Source: a virus
Lineage: Duplodnaviria > Caudoviricetes
DNA: 64,000 nt
Virus record (IMG/VR): IMGVR_UViG_3300031965_000015
Span: 6,530-70,529 of that record
Strand: one strand, 5' to 3'
The notes below the pieces were generated by a model. That model made no database searches. It was not told the origin of the DNA and saw nothing but the letters and a program-made list of their open reading frames with translations. Both the position numbers and the translations under genes were made by a program. Positions 5,253 through 28,700 of the stretch are shown piece by piece. How positions within the stretch are numbered: the stretch's first letter is position 1; each line of letters opens with the position of its first letter.

Positions 5253-7391
5253 TCAATTCAACTGAAATTGTTTTTTATCTTTCTTCCCATTGTTCCCGTT
5301 GTTCTTGAACTGTCCTAATACATTGTCCTTTGCCATCTGCTTAATCTCAAGCATTTTTTTCTGGTTGTCCAATACAATCCCTTCTACTTCTGCTTTTTTC
5401 TCAGCTATGCCAAGTTTTATCATTATTTGCTGTACCTGTTGCATTAGCTGTTCCAGTTTTTGTTGCTCAGGGCTTCCACCCTCTGCCTGTTGCCACGCTT
5501 CAAGTATCTTCTTAGCATAAGGGAAAGAACCTGCTTCAACTAATATCGGAAGCATTGCATCTGCTTTTTTAGGATTAATCTGTACTACTGCATCAAAGAG
5601 TTCTGCCATCTTTTGGAATTCTATTTCTTTTGCGTTACTTGTGTACGGGGTTTTATCGAAAACAAAATCAAACTCTCCTGCAGTAATGTCATTCTTAATC
5701 TTCATTACAATGGCTCCCTTTTCAGGATCATAAGCAAATACCTTCTGATTTACTGCCATATCAAAATCCGGCTCACCTGAAATATCTTCCGTTATCCTGA
5801 ATATCCTCTGGGTTGTTACATTATATTGAATTAAAGCCCAGCTGTATTCCGCTACTGCTATTTGTGAGTTGTCGCTGTTATCAAGTAAATGACCGAATGA
5901 TTTCTCCTGTTGATTCTCTCTTGCTATAAAATGCTTGGCTGATTTCTCCTGCGGGTCTGATCTTCCTTTTAATGCTGCACCTGCCTGACTCAAGTGTTCC
6001 ATAAGTAATGGCATTTCTGATATGGTCCTGATTAAATCCGGTGATACCTGCTGCAATTGTTCGGCTTTAATCTGATTCATATATCCGGGCCTGGTTCTTT
6101 TGTAAGTTGCTAATCTTCCTGACTGCCAGTCCTCTTCGTATCCGTCTATTGCGTTTGCGTCCATTATCCAGCCTGCATTGGCATATTTCCACATCAATTC
6201 AATGTTAAGGCTCATTGCTTTATTAAACTGAGATTGAGGATCAATTAAATCATCAATTACACTATGAGATTTGAATATGTCTGCATGGTAATCATAACAG
6301 TAATCCGGGATGTAACAGAATGTTTTGCTTTTGTAAGGATATGGCTGCTCGTTTACTTTTAATCTGAATGCCGGTATTACTGCGGTTACAAATCTTTTGG
6401 TTTCAAGTTCTTCTCTCGGCTCATCTGCGTCAATCGAATATCTTTCTTTAATCCCGGTTAAGATTTCATTATCGTAATTCATTCCATCGTGGGTTAATCC
6501 TGCTTTAGCTTTGTATTCCCACTGGTAAACATCTGTAACATCAATTCTCTTTTGTCTTTTACGATCATTGTAAATTAATCTCAGTTCAGTTCTCTTTTCG
6601 TGAAGTTCTAATACATCAAATTTTCCCGAAAATGGATCAAACCAGTTTAAGAATTTACTTTCTAATTGGCTCTGCTGATTTGTTGCTACTTCATAAACTG
6701 CCGATAACATACTTTTTAGTTTTCTTGTGAGCCACTTGCCTCTGTCCTTATCCTGTTCAAAGAATAAATTAGCTTCATTCATTATTGCGTTCCTCATCTC
6801 AGGGTCATTGGTAGCGTATTTATAAATTATATCTTCAACTGTCATCTTTGGTTTGTCGAAGATGTAATTTGCATACTGCCAGGTTGTGTCTGCATAGTTA
6901 GGCTCGAATCTTATTTCTCTGGGGTCACGGGTTGTTATCTCAAGCTCTCCCTGGTTATTATTTTCATAGTTCCACCTTATGTGATAAACTGAATACTTGG
7001 CTATGATTTTATTTATGAAGCTCTTTGATCTGTGCTTATCGAATTTTGTCTTGTCAAAGAAGTGCAACACAACTTGTGATACTACTTCTGCAAGTTCTGT
7101 GTCTGAACCTTTGCCGGTTGGTTTGGCTATTATTTTTTTACGGGTTCCAAGTTCAATGGCTGCTATTGCGTTTATTGCCTGAGTAATTAAATTGTAACTG
7201 CTGATGTTCCTTCCCTGTGCTTCCATTGCTCTTCTATGCTTTTCAAGCCATTGGGATCTGGCAACTGTAACATCAAATGCTCTTGTTTGTTCTTCGTTAA
7301 TATCATTGAAGATCGAGTCGAGGTTTGCGTACTTCCTCATCATATCAAAAAGCAAGTCGTCATCAATTAAATTCCAATTTCTGTTTTTCAT
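5253..7391 (-). CDS. Portal protein (P22/podovirus-like)
   Basis: 712 aa downstream of terL; DLIDPQSQFNKAMS, C-terminal Q-rich coiled coil. Confidence 0.85.
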   Translation of the reverse strand: MKNRNWNLIDDDLLFDMMRKYANLDSIFNDINEEQTRAFDVTVARSQWLEKHRRAMEAQGRNISSYNLITQAINAIAAIELGTRKKIIAKPTGKGSDTELAEVVSQVVLHFFDKTKFDKHRSKSFINKIIAKYSVYHIRWNYENNNQGELEITTRDPREIRFEPNYADTTWQYANYIFDKPKMTVEDIIYKYATNDPEMRNAIMNEANLFFEQDKDRGKWLTRKLKSMLSAVYEVATNQQSQLESKFLNWFDPFSGKFDVLELHEKRTELRLIYNDRKRQKRIDVTDVYQWEYKAKAGLTHDGMNYDNEILTGIKERYSIDADEPREELETKRFVTAVIPAFRLKVNEQPYPYKSKTFCYIPDYCYDYHADIFKSHSVIDDLIDPQSQFNKAMSLNIELMWKYANAGWIMDANAIDGYEEDWQSGRLATYKRTRPGYMNQIKAEQLQQVSPDLIRTISEMPLLMEHLSQAGAALKGRSDPQEKSAKHFIARENQQEKSFGHLLDNSDNSQIAVAEYSWALIQYNVTTQRIFRITEDISGEPDFDMAVNQKVFAYDPEKGAIVMKIKNDITAGEFDFVFDKTPYTSNAKEIEFQKMAELFDAVVQINPKKADAMLPILVEAGSFPYAKKILEAWQQAEGGSPEQQKLEQLMQQVQQIMIKLGIAEKKAEVEGIVLDNQKKMLEIKQMAKDNVLGQFKNNGNNGKKDKKQFQLN

Positions 7392-15556: not shown

Positions 15557-15658
15557 TTCTCTTTTCTCCTTGAGTAGTTATTATATGTTAATTATCATCT
15601 TCCTGATTCCGGCAATATGATGTAGTTATATGTTTATTTTATTAACTATTTCCTTGAA

Positions 15659-15862
15659 TCATATATTTATCAAATCAGAAAAATCTTCTAAGTTCCAAAG
15701 TTTGTTATAGTAATCATCGTGTCCTTGAGTAAATATTTTTTCTTCTTTAATGAGCCTGTCAAGAATTTTTATTCTCTCAACAGGATTTAAAGATTCAATT
15801 CTTTTTTGTTTACTGCTAAGGTGCTCTCTGTATTTTTCTCTGGCGATTTCATTTGCCGACAT
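15659..15862 (-). CDS. Hypothetical protein
   Basis: ORF track. Confidence 0.55.
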   Translation of the reverse strand: MSANEIAREKYREHLSSKQKRIESLNPVERIKILDRLIKEEKIFTQGHDDYYNKLWNLEDFSDLINI

Positions 15863-16652
15863 TAAATCTTGCCTCCCAAAATATCTTGTCTTTTTTACTA
15901 TTATTTTCTGCCGCCCAAAGAGGCTGCAAATTTGTATATAGGCACAATCCTCTTAATGTTTTTTCATCTTTAGCAGAAGCAAGTGGCATTATATGATCTA
16001 TCTGCCACTTGCCATAATTGCTCCAAGACATTCCTTTTTTAAATTGTTGTTCAATATGTACTTTAATGGAAACGTAGCTTCCCCCTAATAATTTTTCCGT
16101 AGAGGTTGGTTTCTTTTGTCCTATTTTTCTGAATATTTCATTTGTTCTTGATTTTAAACTATCCTTTAATCTGAATATTAAATCAGTTCGCCTTCTTTCT
16201 CTTATCTGTCGGTTTCTTCTTTGTTTGCTAGAGTTATGATATACTTTTATTTTTTCTTTATTTCTTAGGACATATATTTTTTTCTTGACAGAAAGGATTT
16301 CTTTATTTTTTAAATAATATCTTCTTTTATTAGCAAGAACCTTTTCTCTATTCTCTTTATAATAAAGCTCATCTCTTTTCTTAATTCTTTCAGGATTATA
16401 ATTTGCTTTCTTTCTTTCCTTGATTACATCTAAATTATTCAAATAATAAGTCTTTTTCATTTTTGAAATTTTATCTTTATTCAATACCCTATAAGTTTTT
16501 TGATATCCGATAAGTTCTTTAGAGTGTTCTAAATAATACTTTTTCCTATACTCTTTAGCTTTGTTGGAATCTTTATAAGGCATTATCATCCACCTTAAAC
16601 TTCTTTTCCCATATCTTTTTTCGTTCCGAAGCGTAACTTTCTCTGGCTTCAT
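15849..16652 (-). CDS. HNH-type endonuclease with K/Y-rich repeat region (likely start MPYKD at 16583)
   Basis: MSWSNYGKWQIDHIMPL...YTNLQPLWAAENNSKKDK. Confidence 0.8.
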   Translation of the reverse strand: MKPEKVTLRNEKRYGKRSLRWMIMPYKDSNKAKEYRKKYYLEHSKELIGYQKTYRVLNKDKISKMKKTYYLNNLDVIKERKKANYNPERIKKRDELYYKENREKVLANKRRYYLKNKEILSVKKKIYVLRNKEKIKVYHNSSKQRRNRQIRERRRTDLIFRLKDSLKSRTNEIFRKIGQKKPTSTEKLLGGSYVSIKVHIEQQFKKGMSWSNYGKWQIDHIMPLASAKDEKTLRGLCLYTNLQPLWAAENNSKKDKIFWEARFNVGK

Positions 16653-18123: not shown

Positions 18124-18264
18124 TCATATAGCTAATTTTAATTGTGATCTGAACTGAGTTAATCTTTTGTTGGCAGCTTTGAAATAATCTTTGTCAATCT
18201 CGTAAGCCACGTAACTGAACCCCATATCCTCACAGGCGATTAAAGATGAAGCTAACCTTTGCAT
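18124..18264 (-). pseudogene. Orphan C-terminal fragment of a DNA methyltransferase
   Basis: Manual translation MQRLASSLIACEDMGFSYVAYEIDKDYFKAANKRL...; parallels SSRIACWDMGFDFTGYEIDEDYYCASEKRF of 18845..19519. Confidence 0.8.
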
Positions 18265-18848
18265 ATCCAATACCCGTATATTTTTAGAATATGCTCCTTA
18301 AATTCTTCTACATTGAATGAGTTTTTCATCCAGTTACAATGTTTACAGCAAGGGACTGAGTTATGTCTCGTATATCCATATTTATTATCCAACCTATCTA
18401 TCCCATTAAATTTTAATATAAAATCAGTTACTTTATAATGTTTACCATTGACAGTTCTTTCGTCTTTCACAGTATTACTTCCATCTACTCCACAATAAAA
18501 ACAGGGACTAAGTGATATAAGTTTAAATTCGGGGAGACTTAAAATTTTACCATAATATTTTTTCTTTTTATGCCTCGATTTCAATCTTCCGTATTCTCCC
18601 TCTAATAACTTTTCCTTCCTATCAAAGTTTCTATTCTTAACATATCTGGAATCTCTCAACAGGCAACCACAACTTTTAGATTTCCCGCTTCTTAAAGATT
18701 CCCCTGTCACTGTATGTTCCTTACCGCAATCGCAAACACATTCCCATTTCAACTGGTTCTTGTTCCCCCTTTTATCAGAGACGCCAACCACTTCAAGTTT
18801 ACCGAATTTCAATCCAACTAAATTTTTTACGTTTAAATGTAATTTCAT
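18252..18848 (-). CDS. Free-standing HNH homing endonuclease
   Basis: GLKFGKLEVV...WECVCDCG...KSCGC; CFYCG...NGIDRLDN...NSVPCCKHCNWMK. Confidence 0.82.
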   Translation of the reverse strand: MKLHLNVKNLVGLKFGKLEVVGVSDKRGNKNQLKWECVCDCGKEHTVTGESLRSGKSKSCGCLLRDSRYVKNRNFDRKEKLLEGEYGRLKSRHKKKKYYGKILSLPEFKLISLSPCFYCGVDGSNTVKDERTVNGKHYKVTDFILKFNGIDRLDNKYGYTRHNSVPCCKHCNWMKNSFNVEEFKEHILKIYGYWICKG

Positions 18849-19519
18849 AAGTACCCGTATTTTTGAGGCGGGAATAAAACCTCTTGTTTAATATACTGTT
18901 GGAATCTTTTTTCAGAGGCACAATAATAATCTTCGTCTATTTCATATCCAGTAAAATCAAAACCCATATCCCAGCACGCAATTCTTGAACTACCCGAACC
19001 TACGTGAGTGTCTAATATTTTATCATTTGGTTTTGCGTATTTGGTTAAGAGCCATTTGTAGAGGGCTACTGGTTTTTGAGTTGGATGGATATTAACACCT
19101 AAGAATCCTCTATCCTCATTTGTCATTCGTTCATATACCAAGACCCTACTGTTAAATGATGTCCAAGCTAATTCTGCTTGTGATAAAGTGAATTCATACG
19201 GGACTTTATACCAAATAACCCAACATCTACTTGAGGATAAAAATTCTGTGAAATAATTCCCTCCCCAGATAATTTGGTTTTTAGATACTCGTAACAATTC
19301 ATCAAAATATTCTTTATGAGGTATTTCCCTATCCCATTTTTTCTGTTCATATATCTGCCATCCATTTCTATCTTTTACTGTTGCCCCCTTTATTTTCTTA
19401 TCGGCATAATCTATCCCATAAGGCGGGTCAACTATAGCCAAATCGAAGTACTTATCAGGATAGCTCGGCATACCCTTTTCTTTATCCATACAATCTATGT
19501 TTAGGAATAGATTATCCAT
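18845..19519 (-). CDS. DNA methyltransferase (N4-C/N6-A, beta class)
   Basis: LAIVDPPYG, HPTQKP, LDTHVGSGSS, GYEID. Confidence 0.92.
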   Translation of the reverse strand: MDNLFLNIDCMDKEKGMPSYPDKYFDLAIVDPPYGIDYADKKIKGATVKDRNGWQIYEQKKWDREIPHKEYFDELLRVSKNQIIWGGNYFTEFLSSSRCWVIWYKVPYEFTLSQAELAWTSFNSRVLVYERMTNEDRGFLGVNIHPTQKPVALYKWLLTKYAKPNDKILDTHVGSGSSRIACWDMGFDFTGYEIDEDYYCASEKRFQQYIKQEVLFPPQKYGYL

Positions 19520-20375: not shown

Positions 20376-20400
20376 TTATTCCTTTCGGTATAAGTAGTAG

Positions 20401-21087
20401 TTAGCTTGACTGCATTGCCTCTCGTTTCAAGTCTCTCATTTTTTGTTGATAAGCAGTCCAGCTTCCAATCCTTCGCCAATTATAAATATGGTTTAATGCC
20501 CCGTGGTGCATCGCTCCTGAACAATCCTCAACCCCTTCCATCATTGCTTTTTCTAATTCTTTAGCATCTTTGTTTTCAGTGGTTGCAACTCCAAAAATTT
20601 TGGGGCTTGCTTTTACTTCGGGATGTACGTCTGGATGTTCACTCCACCATTTGCATCCTTGAGATACCATTTTCCGGCAAGCTCTTTCATAATCAGAGTG
20701 GAATCCGCTAATCTCTCTCATATCATCCGTCCATTCAAATCCTTCAATTTGCGGTTCTGGATTTATCGGTTCTAATAATCTTCGTGCTTCTTCAACTAAA
20801 TATTCTTCGTGTTGCTTCTCATCCTCTGCACGCTGCTCATCAATAGTCTTGTAATAAACTTCCGCACCATCCAAAAACAACCCTCTCACTGTATAACCAA
20901 TTCCCTTACCGTAAAATCTTGCTTCCATTCCAACTTTTGGTTTTATCGGTGAATCTTCTTTTACTCCGAAGCTCCAACCATCATCACACTTAAACCAACC
21001 GCCTTCGCTAACTTCTGTAATTGTTTTAATTTCAAATTCCAGATCATCTTTAGGAAACATTTTGCACCTTCCTTCTGTGCCCGGCAA
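20401..21087 (-). CDS. Hypothetical protein (cassette 1; start may be MFPKD at 21060)
   Basis: ORF track; stop lies in GTTAGC at 20400. Confidence 0.7.
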   Translation of the reverse strand: MPGTEGRCKMFPKDDLEFEIKTITEVSEGGWFKCDDGWSFGVKEDSPIKPKVGMEARFYGKGIGYTVRGLFLDGAEVYYKTIDEQRAEDEKQHEEYLVEEARRLLEPINPEPQIEGFEWTDDMREISGFHSDYERACRKMVSQGCKWWSEHPDVHPEVKASPKIFGVATTENKDAKELEKAMMEGVEDCSGAMHHGALNHIYNWRRIGSWTAYQQKMRDLKREAMQSS

Positions 21088-21094
21088 TGCAGCA

Positions 21095-21225
21095 AGCTAA
21101 CAAGCTACTGTAGCTGACTTGCTTAAAGTGTCGGGCAATTTTAATTTGTTAATATGTTTAGTTAATAAGTTCATTCTAAATTCGTTTTTAATAACGCAAG
21201 CAGCTAAGTAGCCACTCCGTTATGT
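21095..21225 (+). other. attC-like site A (131 bp)
   Basis: TAAC-AA-GCTACT[G]TAGCTG[A]CTTGC ... GCAAG-CAGCTA-AGTAGC-CACTCC-GTTAT. Confidence 0.85.
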
Positions 21226-21360
21226 AGAAACTTTGGCTCGCTTTTTCAACCAAACTACATTCTTAAATAGTGAAACCCATTCTCCAGTAACATCCTTAAT
21301 TTCACATCCAACATTTAGCGAATAGGCTATTCTCCAGAGCTTCCATTTATACCAAATCAT
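21220..21360 (-). CDS. Small cassette ORF (46 aa, not in ORF track)
   Basis: MIWYKWKLWRIAYSLNVGCEIKDVTGEW...KVST*; stop in the R' box of site A. Confidence 0.6.
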   Translation of the reverse strand: MIWYKWKLWRIAYSLNVGCEIKDVTGEWVSLFKNVVWLKKRAKVST

Positions 21361-21692
21361 TTTTCCTCCTTAAATTGTTCGTCTAAATCTCTCATCCTTG
21401 CGTGCGGGTTAAAATCTGTATTCCTACCGCCAAAGTTCTGCATAACACGTGCTTCAACCGGAAGGCTATTGATGTTCACCCACTTGTTCCCAACTTTAGT
21501 ATAAATTCTTATTCTAAATCCTTCTCCAAAAAAAGGTTCGGCTCCGGCATCCCAACTATGCGGTTCAAGCTGACTGCTAATAGCGTCCCGAATTATTTCT
21601 TCTAATTTTCCGAAAGTATTTATATCTGTTTTGATGGGGAAGCTATAATTACCCCCCTTCATATTTGTTATTGTTATACTGTAAACGTTCAT
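21357..21692 (-). CDS. Cassette ORF starting inside attC B
   Basis: Reads through the attC arm (SSQLEP). Confidence 0.7.
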   Translation of the reverse strand: MNVYSITITNMKGGNYSFPIKTDINTFGKLEEIIRDAISSQLEPHSWDAGAEPFFGEGFRIRIYTKVGNKWVNINSLPVEARVMQNFGGRNTDFNPHARMRDLDEQFKEEK

Positions 21693-21747
21693 AAATTTAT
21701 TTCCTTTCTATTTTTTCCGCAGCAGCTTAACCGCCACAGCGTTATAG
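21550..21747 (+). other. attC-like site B (198 bp)
   Basis: CAAC-TATG-CGGTT[C]AAGCTG[A]CTGC ... GCAG-CAGCTT-AACCG-CCACAGC-GTTAT. Confidence 0.85.
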
Positions 21748-22431
21748 GGACAACCGCATTTGGTTTTCATAATTTTTTAATCTTTGTTTGTAAATGTCAA
21801 TCTATGCCGGATTCAATTCTGCCCCGATGTAACTTCGTTCTAAATGTTTGCAAGCTATGGCAGTTGTTCCTGTCCCCATAAAACCGTCAAAGACAATTTG
21901 CCCTTTGCTTGTAAAGTAATTCAAAATCCTCTGCGTAAGTTTTAATGAAGTTAATCCTGGATGAGGAAATCTTTCTTCTCTAAAAAAATATCCTTCACCC
22001 GGCATTTTCACATCCCACCACAAATCATAAATTGTATTATTCGGTTTAGCTGTTACTAAAAATCCACAGTATTGCCGATAGTAATCTTTGAACGGTGTTC
22101 CGATTGCTCCTTTGCGGACCACAATAAGTTTTGCATCTGGCATCAAATCCCAATAACCTTTTATTAAATCTGCACCCACAAACATTCCAAAATTGTTATT
22201 ACTAATTCGTTTGTATTCTGCTATAAATTCTTTTACCCAATTCCAGTATTCATCGGCGGGCAAATTGTCTTTATACACGCCATAATCCTTCCCTTTATTG
22301 TAAGGTGGATCGCTGAACGCAAAATTAACAGAGCAATCCGGCATACATTTTAGCACTTCCATTAAATCAAAATTGTGCACAATGTCCTGCGGTTGCCCTA
22401 TAACTACGGTTCCAAGTTGACCGCCTTTCAT
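21742..22431 (-). pseudogene. DNA methyltransferase (DPPY, beta class) cassette with in-frame TAG at 21802-21804
   Basis: FSDPPYN, FPHP, FDGFMGTGTT; ...GAELNPA*IDIYKQRLKNYENQMRLSL* continues in frame to the TAA in the R' box of site B. Confidence 0.75.
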
Positions 22432-22631
22432 TTTCTTCCTTCTTGGAGTTTTTCCATTTCTTCAACACATTCCGTTACCATATTGGAAGTTCCACGATCT
22501 ACTTCACCCATATCAATATCATCTTTTATACTTAATAGAACCGATATGACTTTCTCAATAATTTCTTTTTCTTGTTTTTTAGTCATTGTAATTCCCTTTC
22601 CGGCGGCAACTTAAACCGCACAGCGTTATGC
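22398..22631 (+). other. attC-like site C (234 bp)
   Basis: TAAC-TA-CGGTTC[C]AAGTTG[A]CCGCC ... GGCGG-CAACTT-AAACCG-CACAGC-GTTAT. Confidence 0.85.
22428..22586 (-). CDS. 52-aa ORF lying entirely inside the loop of attC C
   Basis: MTKKQEKEIIEKVISVLL...QEGRK*; RBS AAAGGG; ATGA-coupled to the MTase. Confidence 0.6.
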   Translation of the reverse strand: MTKKQEKEIIEKVISVLLSIKDDIDMGEVDRGTSNMVTECVEEMEKLQEGRK

Positions 22632-22639
22632 CGCTTGTC

Positions 22640-22915
22640 TCATATATAGCAGTATCCAGGTTCACAAAGGTCATTGGGTGCGCCCTCATTAAATAATTCT
22701 CCTTGCTTTAATTTTTCTTCATACTTACCAGTGTGTATTCTAAGATTAAAGTTGTATGGCGGAGAAGTCACCACGCACCCGATAGACGGCAAGCTATCAA
22801 TCTTGGTTAGGCAGTCATCGTTGTATAGGGTTATTCCATCTATACTAAACGGCACATAACTCGCAACTCTACCCGAATTATTATCTTGGTCTGTCAATTT
22901 TATTTTTTCATCCAT
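22640..22915 (-). pseudogene. Internally deleted DNA methyltransferase (SPPY) cassette
   Basis: ITLYNDDCL...VVTSPPYN, then jumps to a C-tail-like KLKQGELF; motif I absent. Confidence 0.7.
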
Positions 22916-22984
22916 TAAAATTTATTCTCTAATTTTATTTTGTAAGCAACTACCATAATCGGGTAAGTTGCCATACTGTTATGC
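22854..22984 (+). other. attC-like site D (131 bp)
   Basis: CATAAC-TC-GCAACT[C]TACCCG[A]AT ... AT-CGGGTA-AGTTGC-CATACT-GTTATG. Confidence 0.85.
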
Positions 22985-23389
22985 CTCACGCTGGCTTGCT
23001 TCAATTATTTCAATCAAAGTTTTTGCTTTATTATCCCAATCCTTTTTGTTTAGCTGGTAATATTGTTCTGCGGTCATATTTCTTAGGGATGAATTTCCTA
23101 TACCAACCTCTGCCCCTGTCCACATTATGCTTATTAAATATTTTGCTAATTTCTCTTGTAAGTTCCCGCCAGCTACCACTTCGTTAGGCACAACTGGCGG
23201 TTCAAGCTGACTGCTAACAGCCTTCTGTATTTTTGCAAATTCACTCTTATGTAATTTTACAATTATCTGCCTAACAGCATCATCAATTTTTATGTTTATA
23301 AAATCTCCCTCGTTTTCATCCATTGATGTAACAAGATTTTTCCATACCTCCCAATTCTCAAACCTTCCCTTAAATGTTATTGTTGCCAT
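22979..23389 (-). CDS. Cassette ORF starting inside attC E
   Basis: SSQLEPPVV read-through; stop in the R' box of site D. Confidence 0.7.
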   Translation of the reverse strand: MATITFKGRFENWEVWKNLVTSMDENEGDFINIKIDDAVRQIIVKLHKSEFAKIQKAVSSQLEPPVVPNEVVAGGNLQEKLAKYLISIMWTGAEVGIGNSSLRNMTAEQYYQLNKKDWDNKAKTLIEIIEASQREA

Positions 23390-23444
23390 AATTTATTTTC
23401 CTTTCTTATAATTCCGCAGCAGCTTAACCGCCACAGCGTTATTT
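23188..23444 (+). other. attC-like site E (257 bp)
   Basis: CAAC-TGG-CGGTT[C]AAGCTG[A]CTGC ... GCAG-CAGCTT-AACCG-CCACAGC-GTTAT. Confidence 0.85.
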
Positions 23445-23750
23445 TGACTTACAATATTTTTCAAGTCCATAATCGCCTAACACAAATCTCAAACTTGACG
23501 CTAAAGAATCTTCCATTCTGCCATCATCTTCTGCTTCATCAATTTGGTCTATTGCTCCTTTTATAGCATTCTTCCAATACTCTAATTCACGCAAAATAAC
23601 CAACGGTTCAAGCTGACTGGCTTTGTATAGTCGCATAATTAGCCATTGTTCCAGAGGGCTTGTATCGGTAGTGCCCCTAACAATTTCTCCATTTTCGTCA
23701 GCATATTGTTTTAATATTTTAATAGCAAACTCTACTTTTTTATTCTCCAT
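23439..23750 (-). CDS. Cassette ORF starting inside attC F
   Basis: ASQLEPLVI read-through; stop in the R' box of site E. Confidence 0.7.
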   Translation of the reverse strand: MENKKVEFAIKILKQYADENGEIVRGTTDTSPLEQWLIMRLYKASQLEPLVILRELEYWKNAIKGAIDQIDEAEDDGRMEDSLASSLRFVLGDYGLEKYCKSK

Positions 23751-23807
23751 AAATTTAATCTCCTTTCTTAAAATGTCGCCAGCAGCTTAACCGCAACTGC
23801 GTTATAA
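23594..23807 (+). other. attC-like site F (214 bp)
   Basis: TAAC-CAA-CGGTT[C]AAGCTG[A]CTGGC ... GCCAG-CAGCTT-AACCG-CAACTGC-GTTAT; compensatory change relative to B and E. Confidence 0.85.
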
Positions 23808-24017
23808 TTGGTAGCCCTCTGGATATTTTGTTGATAATGGTCTGTAATTTTCATCAGCAGGTTTACCACATTGCTTGCACTTCATTCTTGGGATAACATT
23901 CTGGTGGAAGTTGGCATCATCATAACCAGTCCCTCTTTCTATATGCCCGCAATGTTCACATTCATAAATTGCCCAGAAATCTCTACGGCTTTGCGATTCA
24001 ATAGTTTTAATTTTCAT
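23802..24017 (-). CDS. Zinc-ribbon protein
   Basis: YECEHCG...KCKQCG; stop in the R' box of site F. Confidence 0.7.
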   Translation of the reverse strand: MKIKTIESQSRRDFWAIYECEHCGHIERGTGYDDANFHQNVIPRMKCKQCGKPADENYRPLSTKYPEGYQL

Positions 24018-24083: not shown

Positions 24084-24452
24084 TCAATTATCACTCTGAT
24101 ATTTTAAGTAACTTAATTGAGATCGTAATCCATCCATTTGATGAACACAGGCAGCCTCAAGTCTTTCTGCATATCTCAGGGCTTTAATTTCTCTATGACA
24201 TTTATCTTCAATCTTTATTTTTAATAGAGTAGCGTTAATCTTCGGATTATCTTCCATCACTTCTTCAGAGGCTCTTGCTTTAGCATTTAAGAGTATTGAT
24301 TCGGCAGTAGCGACTATTTCAGGAAGTCTTGCATGGTAGCCATTTATAAATTTTATTCTTTCAGTCAGATTGACGCCTTCCATACCGTAATCAGATTTTA
24401 AGAAATCACTTATATCTGTAATCTCTTTGAATATGTTTATTAGTAAGTCCAT
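24084..24452 (-). CDS. Helical recombination-module protein (UvsY-like?)
   Basis: Coiled-coil ending DGLRSQLSYLK; adjacent to SSB-like and Gp157 genes. Confidence 0.45.
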   Translation of the reverse strand: MDLLINIFKEITDISDFLKSDYGMEGVNLTERIKFINGYHARLPEIVATAESILLNAKARASEEVMEDNPKINATLLKIKIEDKCHREIKALRYAERLEAACVHQMDGLRSQLSYLKYQSDN

Positions 24453-25084
24453 TAGAATGGCAAATCCTCATTATCTGCAACTTGCAAACTTTCTTTAGTA
24501 ACCTTATGAGAAGGGTCAACAGCTTCTCTATATTCTGCCGATGTTTTAATTTTATCTCTTAACCACTCAGGTAATTTTTCAAATTTGGATTGGTCAAAAG
24601 GCGTATAAGTAAATTCAAAATTATCATTGATCTGTGCAGGGCAATCTAAGCCTTTAGGTAACGCTGAGGCACTACTTATTTCAGCATAGGTTTTTCCCTG
24701 TTTGCTCGTTTTGTGTATCACTGAGAGCATACACGGCTTTCCTAATAGCTTTGTAATATCAAACAGCTTTGCTTCATCTTCAGAAAACCCCTTGCCTCTC
24801 CAGGATTCAAGAAATTTTCTTAGATTAGCTTTCTCATGCATTGAAAGAGTAAAATCTTTTGATACCGAAAAAGGTTGTTCACCATTTTCTTCTTTGAATA
24901 CCTTTAACTCAGTAGGTAACTCCCAAGAAATTCTTACTTTATTAACTTCCTTTTCCTCACCCATATAATCCTGTGAGATAGTTCCTATATGAACCATTGA
25001 ATAACATCTCGCCACATAAGTCCCTGCATTTACTATTTCAAAACTATTGCCAGATGAACTTGCATTTATCATTTTATTCTCCAT
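24452..25084 (-). CDS. Phage ssDNA-binding protein-like (OB fold, acidic DDLPF-type tail)
   Basis: GTYVARCYSMVHIGT, LRKFLESWRGK, LLGKPCMLSV, C-terminal EDLPF. Confidence 0.7.
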   Translation of the reverse strand: MENKMINASSSGNSFEIVNAGTYVARCYSMVHIGTISQDYMGEEKEVNKVRISWELPTELKVFKEENGEQPFSVSKDFTLSMHEKANLRKFLESWRGKGFSEDEAKLFDITKLLGKPCMLSVIHKTSKQGKTYAEISSASALPKGLDCPAQINDNFEFTYTPFDQSKFEKLPEWLRDKIKTSAEYREAVDPSHKVTKESLQVADNEDLPF

Positions 25085-28152: not shown

Positions 28153-28268
28153 TAATTATTACGTTTAAACAGTTTTCAACTTCGCCAGTCACATTTAATT
28201 TTAGAATATTTTAGAAACGAACTAAGATTATTATTGGTTATATGATAGCCAATCATTATCTCGTCTGT

Positions 28269-28571
28269 TTATACGGAAATTACCTTCTTATTTATTGTAG
28301 TGGTTTCTTCTACAACTCTCATCCCTGATTCGCATAACTTTATTGGCTTATCTACGTCATCATAACTCTCTACATTAGCCCAAAATATTTCATCAGAAAA
28401 GATTTCCTGTTTTTGTAGAATAAATTTCCGTATAACGAGTGGCTCAAGTTTACCGACTTGCCTTTTCTCGTTAATTTGTTTTTCTAATTCTCTGGTAAAT
28501 TCATCCATCTCTAAATCTTTATAATCATCATAGTTTAATTCTCTTGGTTCTCCATCAGTAATCCACTCCAT
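28269..28571 (-). CDS. Solo-cassette ORF starting inside degenerate attC G
   Basis: GKLEPLVIRK read-through of the arm. Confidence 0.65.
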   Translation of the reverse strand: MEWITDGEPRELNYDDYKDLEMDEFTRELEKQINEKRQVGKLEPLVIRKFILQKQEIFSDEIFWANVESYDDVDKPIKLCESGMRVVEETTTINKKVISV

Positions 28572-28700
28572 TGTTCTCTCCTTAGTTTAATGATATTGGT
28601 TCAATTATTATGTTACCTTCAAGCGTATAAATATTTAACCACACTATGCTTTCTAAATACATTTTATTTTCCTTTCCGGCAGCTTAGCCATAACATATTT
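28430..28700 (+). other. Degenerate attC-like site G
   Basis: TATAAC-GAGT-GGCT[C]AAGTTT[A]CCG ... CGG-CAGCTT-AGCC; R' box decayed. Confidence 0.6.

Follow-up and report, generated by a model that had tools for sequence, protein, structure and literature searches.

The 64,000-nucleotide (nt) stretch of the Caudoviricetes record IMGVR_UViG_3300031965_000015 analysed here (positions 6,530 to 70,529 of the record; hereafter, the window) carries an array of six integron-type gene cassettes beginning at position 20400, each ended by a site with the anatomy of an attC recombination site. All cassette genes lie on the strand opposite to that of the sites. No match to PF00589 and no gene for a tyrosine recombinase were found anywhere in the complete 70.5-kb genome, as the earlier note on this DNA had stated for the integrase, and the array is therefore a cluster of attC sites lacking an integrase (CALIN). 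Taken together, the data are very probably best explained by six cassettes assembled by an integron integrase (IntI) from a phage-associated clade, the gene of which (intI) has been lost from this genome. The window makes up most of a 70,529-bp (base pair) soil phage genome with direct terminal repeats and a completeness rating of 100%. This genome is AT-rich, includes portal and terminase genes, and has nearly all of its genes on the minus (-) strand.

The sites were located with a scanner written from their grammar: GTTA, a spacer of 5-7 nt, a 17-nt L' arm, a partner arm of 6+1+6+1+5 nt with no more than 3 mismatches, AAC 1-4 nt upstream of the partner arm, and a loop of up to 450 nt. Over the whole 70.5-kb genome it returned exactly six sites, A to F, all on the plus (+) strand and with at most one arm mismatch each, besides one weak match with 3 mismatches on the other strand. 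Shuffled genomes (n = 20) gave 0-1 matches each. The six attC-like inverted repeats that the earlier note had seen on the + strand were thus all recovered, with its R'' coordinates off by up to 2 nt. A second, looser scanner, which fits both phage and classical sites, was run on the phage set described below and on 81 bacterial IntI loci plus a class 1 control. Both scanners select for pairing, so that percentages of pairing are partly built in; the strand bias, the clustering, the breakpoints and the integrase are independent of this selection.

Site A comprises the R'' 9-mer at 21093-21101, the L'' arm at 21104-21122, a loop of 73 nt, the L' arm at 21196-21212, and the R' 9-mer at 21219-21227. 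The same elements are found at 21548-21556, 21560-21578, 21718-21734, and 21741-21749 in site B (loop 139 nt); at 22396-22404, 22407-22425, 22602-22618, and 22625-22633 in site C (loop 176 nt); at 22852-22860, 22863-22881, 22955-22971, and 22978-22986 in site D (loop 73 nt); at 23186-23194, 23197-23215, 23415-23431, and 23438-23446 in site E (loop 199 nt); and at 23592-23600, 23603-23621, 23778-23794, and 23801-23809 in site F (loop 156 nt). All six lie within 3.4 kb. Site F is the last of the array; no additional site was found to its right, where the phage backbone begins at 23802.

Judged by their sequence, these six repeats are attC sites. The outer boxes end in AAC (R'') and begin with GTT (R') in every case. 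Five sites read ATAAC, CTAAC, or ACAAC ... GTTAT with a 2-nt spacer, while the R'' spacer of site B is 3 nt long. Each L'' arm includes two extrahelical bases, C or G followed by A on the + strand (G or C followed by T on the - strand), which are separated by 6 nt, i.e. stand 7 nt apart, and occupy positions 16 and 23 counted from the outer end of R''. The arms of sites A, C, and D are wholly unlike those of B, E, and F in sequence, yet are equally well paired; the compensatory change that the earlier note had read from them is real. Folding of the bottom (-) strand with DNA parameters, a check that had been proposed, kept the L box with its two single-base bulges in all six sites, and the minimum free energy of the bottom strand was below that of the top strand in five of them. 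A local terminator-like hairpin at 21080-21137 was also considered and was dropped in favour of the long-range pairing of site A.

The same anatomy is known from classical integrons. On its sense strand, the aadA5 attC of our class 1 control (plasmid NZ_CP024721, L273) reads TAAC-5 nt-GTT[C]AAGCGG[A]CGGGC ... GCCCGCCGCTCAAC-5 nt-GTTA, and it shares with the phage sites both the T[C]AA...G[A] motif and the bulge positions 16 and 23. Bulges G16 and T23 of attCaadA7 are located at the same positions (PMC5027507). The arm that faces AAC is the one that carries the bulges in the recombining (bottom) strand (PMC5027507); by this rule, the - strand of the window is the bottom strand. Further traits common to the phage sites and classical integrons (class 1; Vibrio cholerae VchIntIA, PDB 2a3v) are the R box with AAC/GTT, the unpaired spacer, the L box and the variable loop, the crossover G/TT (the slash marks the cut), and the complementarity between the start of each cassette and its own R''. 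The earlier note had used the latter trait as a diagnostic test. In the window, it applies to cassettes A, C, and F (9/9 positions) and E (8/9), and extends to D only if an insertion of 2 nt is allowed. The start of cassette A, GTTAGCTTG, for example, is the reverse complement of its R'', CAAGCTAAC. Some of these pairings extend to 13-17 bp with one bulge; an exact 10-mer search for them was too strict because the longer R-box pairings hold a bulge. The R'' of site B is not complementary to its own cassette start, in agreement with the earlier view of the A-to-B interval as an exception and perhaps a fusion.

Arrays of the same type were identified in other phages. The gene flanking the array at 24452..25084 has about 2,400 metagenome homologues, and contigs with these homologues contained such arrays just downstream, with the sites always opposite the gene strand. 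Five more sites were present in an unrelated IMG/VR phage, G001. The resulting family set comprises 11 arrays on phage contigs that are unrelated or only distantly related, with 51 unique sites in total. Among these sites, 49 arms are distinct and all four Watson-Crick pair types occur at most L-box positions, while the consensus over the 51 sites is nnnnnT[C]AAnnnG[A]nnnnn. Arm mismatches were G:T on the bottom strand (A:C on the top strand) in 19 cases vs. G:T on the top strand in 6; a bias towards bottom-strand G:T mismatches is known for attC sites (PMC5027507). The 4-nt extension of the own-start pairing was perfect in 25 of 43 neighbouring pairs vs. 3.3% of random pairs. DNA methyltransferases are the chief recognisable cargo in these relatives as well.

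The arrays of several relatives end at a gene for a true integron integrase. The array on contig L250 is followed by an intI gene (15581-16573) encoding a protein of 330 residues, with a score of 330 bits against the integron integrase model TIGR02249 (cut-off 265). Among solved structures, VchIntIA is its best relative (2a3v; E 1.5e-66), and the alignment of the two is unbroken through residues 176-227, the IntI-specific insert, which is skipped in the alignment with XerA. Twenty phage-type IntIs form a clade with a support of 1.0; they share 49-62% identity with one another and no more than 45% with bacterial IntIs. The catalytic residues R, K, H, R, H, and Y are invariant in all 17 aligned members. 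The four loci of this clade that were examined are all on phage contigs, each with the IntI after an array, and three of them are located beside terminase and portal genes. Both intI and attI adjoin the array in L250, L264, L266, and L268, and a conserved attI of about 62 nt (...AGAATCAATTCTGTATAATATATA/GTTAT) occupies the interval between the intI start codon and the first G/TTA. The arrays of L255 and L256 end in an IntI stump of 57 residues. A search of IMG/VR with the alignment of the clade gave one truncated close match, and a search of the JGI metagenomes returned only bacterial-type IntIs of 37-45% identity, which were used as controls. A bacterial IntI locus from a Melioribacteraceae metagenome-assembled genome (MAG) was uninformative, being cut off by the contig end.

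The integrase of L250 (P0121) is listed at NCBI as 'MAG: integron integrase [Thermoplasmata archaeon]', and homologues of the flanking gene are filed under MAGs of Ignavibacteriales and candidate division WS6. These records are probably phage contigs that were binned into MAGs, and the MAG labels are therefore uninformative with regard to the host. In L266 (2940-3050) and L268 (9890-10000, - strand), the first unit after attI is a perfect 16-bp hairpin, e.g. GTTATTTAGCCGCGCC-CAGG-GGCGCGGCTAAATAAC. Here, the cassette start pairs at once with R'', which means that the gene-body part is empty.

Comparison of the related arrays revealed variation that is precise to the cassette. Over 3,980 bp, contigs L250 and L251 share 99.7% identity; they are unrelated thereafter, with the break at CC/GTTAGCCAG, a G/TTA box. 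L259 and L260 have one 370-bp cassette in common in different surroundings, and homology extends from /GTTAGTTTG to CGTTA/. Homology in the pairs L251/L264 and G001/L253 ends at GTTA likewise, and individual cassettes are found again in other arrays, bounded by GTTA on both sides. The window itself takes part in this pattern: cassette C and a cassette of L255 share 88% identity over the body (21741-22408), and 100% over its first ~60 nt. This homology starts at CGTTATAGGG and ends at CCCTATAACTAC, at R''; beyond R'', the L'' arm, the loop, and the L' arm of the two cassettes differ yet still pair internally. The breakpoints at G/TT that the earlier note had suggested looking for in related phages are therefore present in L250/L251, L259/L260, L251/L264, G001/L253, and window/L255, with one exception (L252, see below). 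Its proposal that the array inserts or shuffles genes agrees with the cassette-precise exchange among relatives; for the window phage itself, such activity would have to be extrapolated from them.

Two further observations concern the ends of the exchanged segments. One attC core is shared by G001, L253, and L270, each of which joins it to different R'' and R' extensions, and L259 and L268 have in common a core that begins at CTAAC. Because the homology between cassette C and L255 ends at R'', and because common cores are joined to differing extensions, the sequences place junctions at both AAC triplets, those of R' and R''. Bottom-strand recombination alone is insufficient to produce both. 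Top-strand recombination at R'' may be one candidate for the R'' junctions; it has been seen at low rates in the laboratory (PMC5027507).

The orientation of the cassette genes distinguishes the phage arrays from bacterial integrons. The second scanner found 55 sites in the phage set and 23 in the bacterial IntI loci with the class 1 control. All phage sites lie opposite the genes, and 21 of the bacterial ones are oriented to intI as in the phages. The larger open reading frame (ORF) beside R'' was located on the bottom strand at 51 phage sites vs. 4 bacterial ones, and on the top strand at 3 vs. 19. On the basis of these counts, the relation between intI, attI, and attC is classical and only the cassette genes are reversed; in class 1 integrons, too, intI and attI have the same end and orientation relative to attC as in the phage relatives. 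The genes antisense to attC reported in the earlier note are thus a property of the whole phage set. Loop lengths were 66-335 nt in the phages (all but one 66-250 nt) vs. 3-78 nt in the bacteria, and the 3' gap was 8-9 nt vs. mostly 5 nt. In a classical integron, the cassette gene is located on the attC top strand and is read from Pc at the attI end, which is not the case for the window cassettes. Phage cassette genes, unlike classical ones, are co-directional with intI and could not be driven by a Pc-type promoter at attI. Other differences from classical integrons are the attI of about 62 nt, which abuts the intI start codon, and the spacer of 2/6 nt instead of 5/5 nt.

The reversed genes are interlocked with the recombination sites. 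At 43 of the 51 unique sites, the loop contains the start of a bottom-strand ORF that continues through L'' and R''. The TAA of R' serves as the stop codon of a gene of at least 40 residues at 26 of 54 sites, vs. 5.5% for any TAA. The suggestion that cassettes are inserted in phase with the leftward operon is therefore valid for about half of the R' boxes across the family and not for the rest. In the window, under the standard code, the TAA terminates a real gene at 20400 and at sites A, D, E, and F. It does so at site B only with readthrough of an amber codon at 21800-21802, and not at site C. The earlier count of such stops was a slight overstatement with regard to site B, while its one exception, site C, was named correctly.

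As to the history of the array in this phage, the 14 nt before the leftmost G/TTA (GGTATAAGTAGTA/GTTAG) agree at 10 of 14 positions with the attI of L266 and with the L259 junction, and do not match the C-rich spacer consensus of attC sites. The leftmost junction (20387..20408, +, GGTATAAGTAGTA/GTTAGCTTG, G at 20400) thus appears to combine an attI-like remnant of 13-14 nt with the start of cassette A. Since this segment resembles the attI end of the relatives and not an attC spacer, the array may be regarded as a former complete integron that has lost intI. As it now stands, the window phage has no intI and only an attI-like remnant, and does not contain a complete integron. The earlier note had ascribed the array to a host or unlinked tyrosine recombinase. 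The likely enzyme can now be named: analogy with the array ends of the relatives, where intI adjoins attI, points to the phage-associated clade of true integron integrases. The array of the window is probably moved only in trans, or is now static.

The following course of events would account for these features. An IntI of the phage-associated clade would have laid down six cassettes, with an attC ending each. Its cut would fall within the R' AAC of the folded bottom (-) strand, corresponding to G/TT on the + strand, and it would join the cassettes at the attI beside its own gene. In the window phage, intI and most of attI would then have been lost, so that the cassettes could be mobilised only by IntI supplied in trans from a co-infecting relative or from the host; otherwise, the array would be frozen. 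The cassette genes, being on the bottom strand, would be read from upstream transcription of the phage towards the integrase end. The start codon and its ribosome-binding site would usually come from the attC loop, and the TAA stop often from the R' TTA. With identifiable cargo consisting mostly of orphan DNA methyltransferases, the array may represent a store of anti-restriction genes.

A more far-reaching version of this scheme is conceivable, and we regard it as rather unlikely. It assumes a working exchange system of a phage-specific integron lineage, in which an IntI co-transcribed with the operon would move backwards cassettes between co-infecting phages, the cargo being reshufflable anti-restriction methyltransferases and other counter-defence genes. 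Both AAC triplets would be used, and the gene bodies (R' to R'') and the attC heads (R'' to R', with the ribosome-binding site and an N-terminal leader) would be exchanged independently, often in frame.

Several observations weigh against the origin of the array through IntI or against its activity. The lack of a recombinase gene leaves no sign of activity in this genome, the R'' of site B does not match its own cassette start, and the gene of cassette D is truncated, though the rest of this cassette is intact. The unpaired spacer is lopsided, with 2 nt vs. 6 nt, while that of the aadA5 attC is 5/5. The upper size limit for characterised attC sites is about 141 bp. Sites A and D are ~131 bp long, and sites B, C, E, and F, with 198-257 bp (loops 139-199 nt), are beyond the range of 57-133 bp of characterised sites (PMC5027507); action of IntI on loops of 139-199 nt would be an extrapolation from these shorter sites. 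A 370-bp indel between the otherwise identical contigs L250 (11192-11561) and L252 has its ends elsewhere than at an R' box. Among public runs, only one contains the region: a soil metagenome kept as contigs, which is probably the source. It offers a single 1726-nt unitig covering 21716-23441, without joints. The ends of this unitig are the 31-nt repeat of sites B and E, i.e. an assembly break, which makes the run uninformative on circles or deletions. No close relative of the window phage itself was found.

Given these points, it is a serious possibility for this one genome, even if on balance an improbable one, that the array is an inert relic, with attC-derived sites that have not recombined since the loss of intI and were kept for their useful genes or perhaps for their hairpins. 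The lack of a PF00589 match in a 100%-complete genome is in line with this, as are the gene fragment in cassette D, the premature amber codon in the methyltransferase gene, the degenerate R'' of site B, and a degenerate solo site without R' at 28267-28700. Simple decay, however, does not agree with six L boxes of at most one mismatch each and with the intactness of all R' boxes. Neither does it agree with the 88% identity (100% over the first ~60 nt) between the body of cassette C and that of L255, two phages whose flanking proteins are only 63% identical, a discrepancy that points to recent exchange. In addition, the near-identical L250 and L251 differ in long-loop cassettes, and long-loop sites therefore recombine in this family.

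Explanations that dispense with IntI fare worse. The stems could have their role in the polycistronic mRNA of the leftward genes, as targets of RNase III processing or as translational gates, the likeness to attC being coincidental. The mRNA has indeed the sequence of the folding bottom strand, the stems of ~22 bp each bracket a ribosome-binding site and a start codon, and the overlap of R' with stop codons (26/54 sites vs. 5.5% of background TAA triplets) would fit such a role. It would leave unexplained the true IntI and conserved attI at the array ends, the breaks of inter-genome homology exactly at GTTA, and the identity of the bulge motif and positions to those of a class 1 attC. We consider this account very improbable; as the sole explanation, an RNA role is refuted by the breakpoints. 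Since the mRNA has the sequence of the folding strand, such a role may exist on top of recombination. Recombination by some enzyme other than IntI, such as the HNH/endonuclease VII-like proteins encoded nearby (15849..16652 and 18252..18848) or a host Xer, is exceedingly improbable. Two such nuclease genes do lie 1.5-4.5 kb from the array, and an ordinary phage-type tyrosine integrase is encoded elsewhere on the G001 contig. Against them, the arrays of the relatives abut IntI and attI and not HNH genes, the site geometry is that read by IntI, and arrays also occur in contigs without those nucleases.

The array may be compared with other known systems. In Treponema denticola-type inverted-integrase integrons, intI and the cassette genes have the same direction because the integrase is flipped, while the cassettes keep their classical sense to attC. 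The reverse is true for the phage lineage, where the genes are flipped and intI, attI, and attC are classical. Arbiol and colleagues reportedly described promoter-stem-loop (PeSL) cassettes of T4-type phages in 2010. PeSLs are units of a promoter and a hairpin that flank small accessory phage genes and are thought to shuffle by homology. Small accessory genes flanked by repeated stem-loops and shuffled between related phages are common to both systems, but PeSLs lack an integrase, AAC/GTT boxes, and a bulged-base grammar. Integron parts and small CALINs were reported in phages, virulent ones included, with methyltransferases among the cassette cargo and with phage attC sites that were recombined by IntI1 in an assay (Qi, Rajabal, Ghaly, Tetu, and Gillings, 2023; PMC9892861). 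The present array agrees with these CALINs in being a phage attC cluster without an integrase. That study, in contrast, recorded small clusters detected via standard tools, and reported no phage-specific IntI clade, conserved phage attI, reversed gene orientation, or oversized loops with gene starts (PMC9892861). A literature search, which was not exhaustive, revealed no paper on reversed cassettes, on gene starts inside attC, or on a phage IntI clade. What is new relative to published integrons is the location of genes on the bottom strand, the loops of 66-335 nt that include gene starts, and the module junctions that occur also at R''.

These features bear on how integrons are viewed. Integrons have been understood as bacterial devices that collect promoterless genes downstream of one promoter, with the strand choice of the integrase keeping the genes in that sense. 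A clade of true IntIs in phages, with classical intI/attI/attC geometry and reversed genes, uncouples strand selectivity from expression via Pc. In this lineage, gene starts are located inside the recombination site, and attC is found at the 5' end of its gene, which is relevant to the origin of cassettes, still an open question. The richness of the arrays in orphan DNA methyltransferases suggests that the cassette logic which serves bacteria in defence and drug resistance is used by phages for counter-defence. With their usual limits on attC size, integron finders probably overlook sites of 200-300 bp.

The cargo of the window array comprises one N6/N4 DNA methyltransferase, one methyltransferase fragment, and four or five small proteins without a family; all cassette genes are on the - strand. 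Cassette A (20400..21219, +) contains a gene at 20401..21060 (-) for a protein of 219 amino acids (aa) with no lead in Pfam, PHROG, or the Protein Atlas. Its attC (21093-21223, loop 73 nt) has no gene start within the loop. Cassette B (21220..21741, +) contains genes at 21220..21360 (-, 46 aa) and 21357..21692 (-, 111 aa), with attC B at 21548-21745 (loop 139 nt). Because of its 3-nt R'' spacer and the lack of complementarity between R'' and the cassette start, it may be a fusion of two cassettes. Cassette C (21742..22625, +; attC C at 22396-22629) carries the N6/N4 methyltransferase gene at 21802..22431 (-; PF01555, E 1e-23), and an entire ORF of 52 aa (22428..22586, -) is located within the 176-nt loop of its attC. 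The in-frame TAG at 21800-21802 corresponds to TAC (Tyr) in the 88%-identical gene of L255, and is either a recent nonsense mutation or a suppressed codon. Readthrough would add 19 codons (IDIYKQRLKNYENQMRLSL) up to the TAA in the R' box of site B.

Cassette D (22626..22978, +) has a gene at 22640..22915 (-, 91 aa) and attC D at 22852-22982 (loop 73 nt). The 91-aa product is an N-terminal methyltransferase fragment, which matches phrog_67 at residues 18-55 only. Its similarity to DNA methyltransferases is confined to their N-terminal ~40 residues, including the SPPY motif, and the ORF ends 15 nt before the R' box. Cassettes E (22979..23438, +) and F (23439..23801, +) encode proteins of 136 aa (22979..23389, -) and 103 aa (23439..23750, -), both without an assigned function. 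The attC of E (23186-23442) has a ribosome-binding site, a start codon, and 57 codons within its 199-nt loop, and that of F is located at 23592-23805 (loop 156 nt). The possibility that the "SQLEP" proteins of B, E, and F are paralogues arising from tandem duplication was ruled out, since the common part is only the L''-encoded peptide SQLEP.

Several minor observations relate to the sites. An exact repeat of 31 nt (21715-21745 = 23412-23442) covers the L' arm, spacer, and R' of sites B and E, and is long enough to break unitigs with k = 31; the single Logan contig of the region stops at each of the two copies. The L250/L252 indel ends in or near L''-like boxes (GCGCGT[C]AAC / TGCAAC[C]AAG). 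At the degenerate solo site (28267-28700), the stop region of ORF 28269..28571, TTATACGGAAATT, has its exact reverse complement, AATTTCCGTATAA, at 28423-28435. This is followed by an L''-like arm, GTGGCT[C]AAGTTT[A]CCGAC; the L' arm is mismatched at four positions, and no R' GTTAT is left.

Other searches yielded little. Within the window, no Rfam family reached its gathering score and no tRNA was detected. Exact-motif scans of IMG/VR with common arm sequences gave about 240 loci, nearly all of them due to chance, with real sites only in G001 and L089. Locus searches with single proteins (Gam, the cassette A protein, and IntI) found no close relatives.

In the surroundings of the array, the HNH/endonuclease VII-like genes at 15849-16652 and 18252-18848 flank a second methyltransferase gene (18845..19519) just left of the array, and are probably homing endonucleases unrelated to the cassettes. 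The RHH-like gene left of the array is unrelated to the gene at the same position in L259. On the right side, the backbone gene at 23802-24017 encodes a protein of 71 aa (phrog_14808) with four Cys residues in CxxC pairs. It was the sole blastn match to a database of cultured phages, with DNA identities of 68-74% to Streptococcus phages and ~70% to Yersinia and Acinetobacter phages. Judging from these identities, the breadth of its matches is unusually wide for a gene of an AT-rich soil phage.

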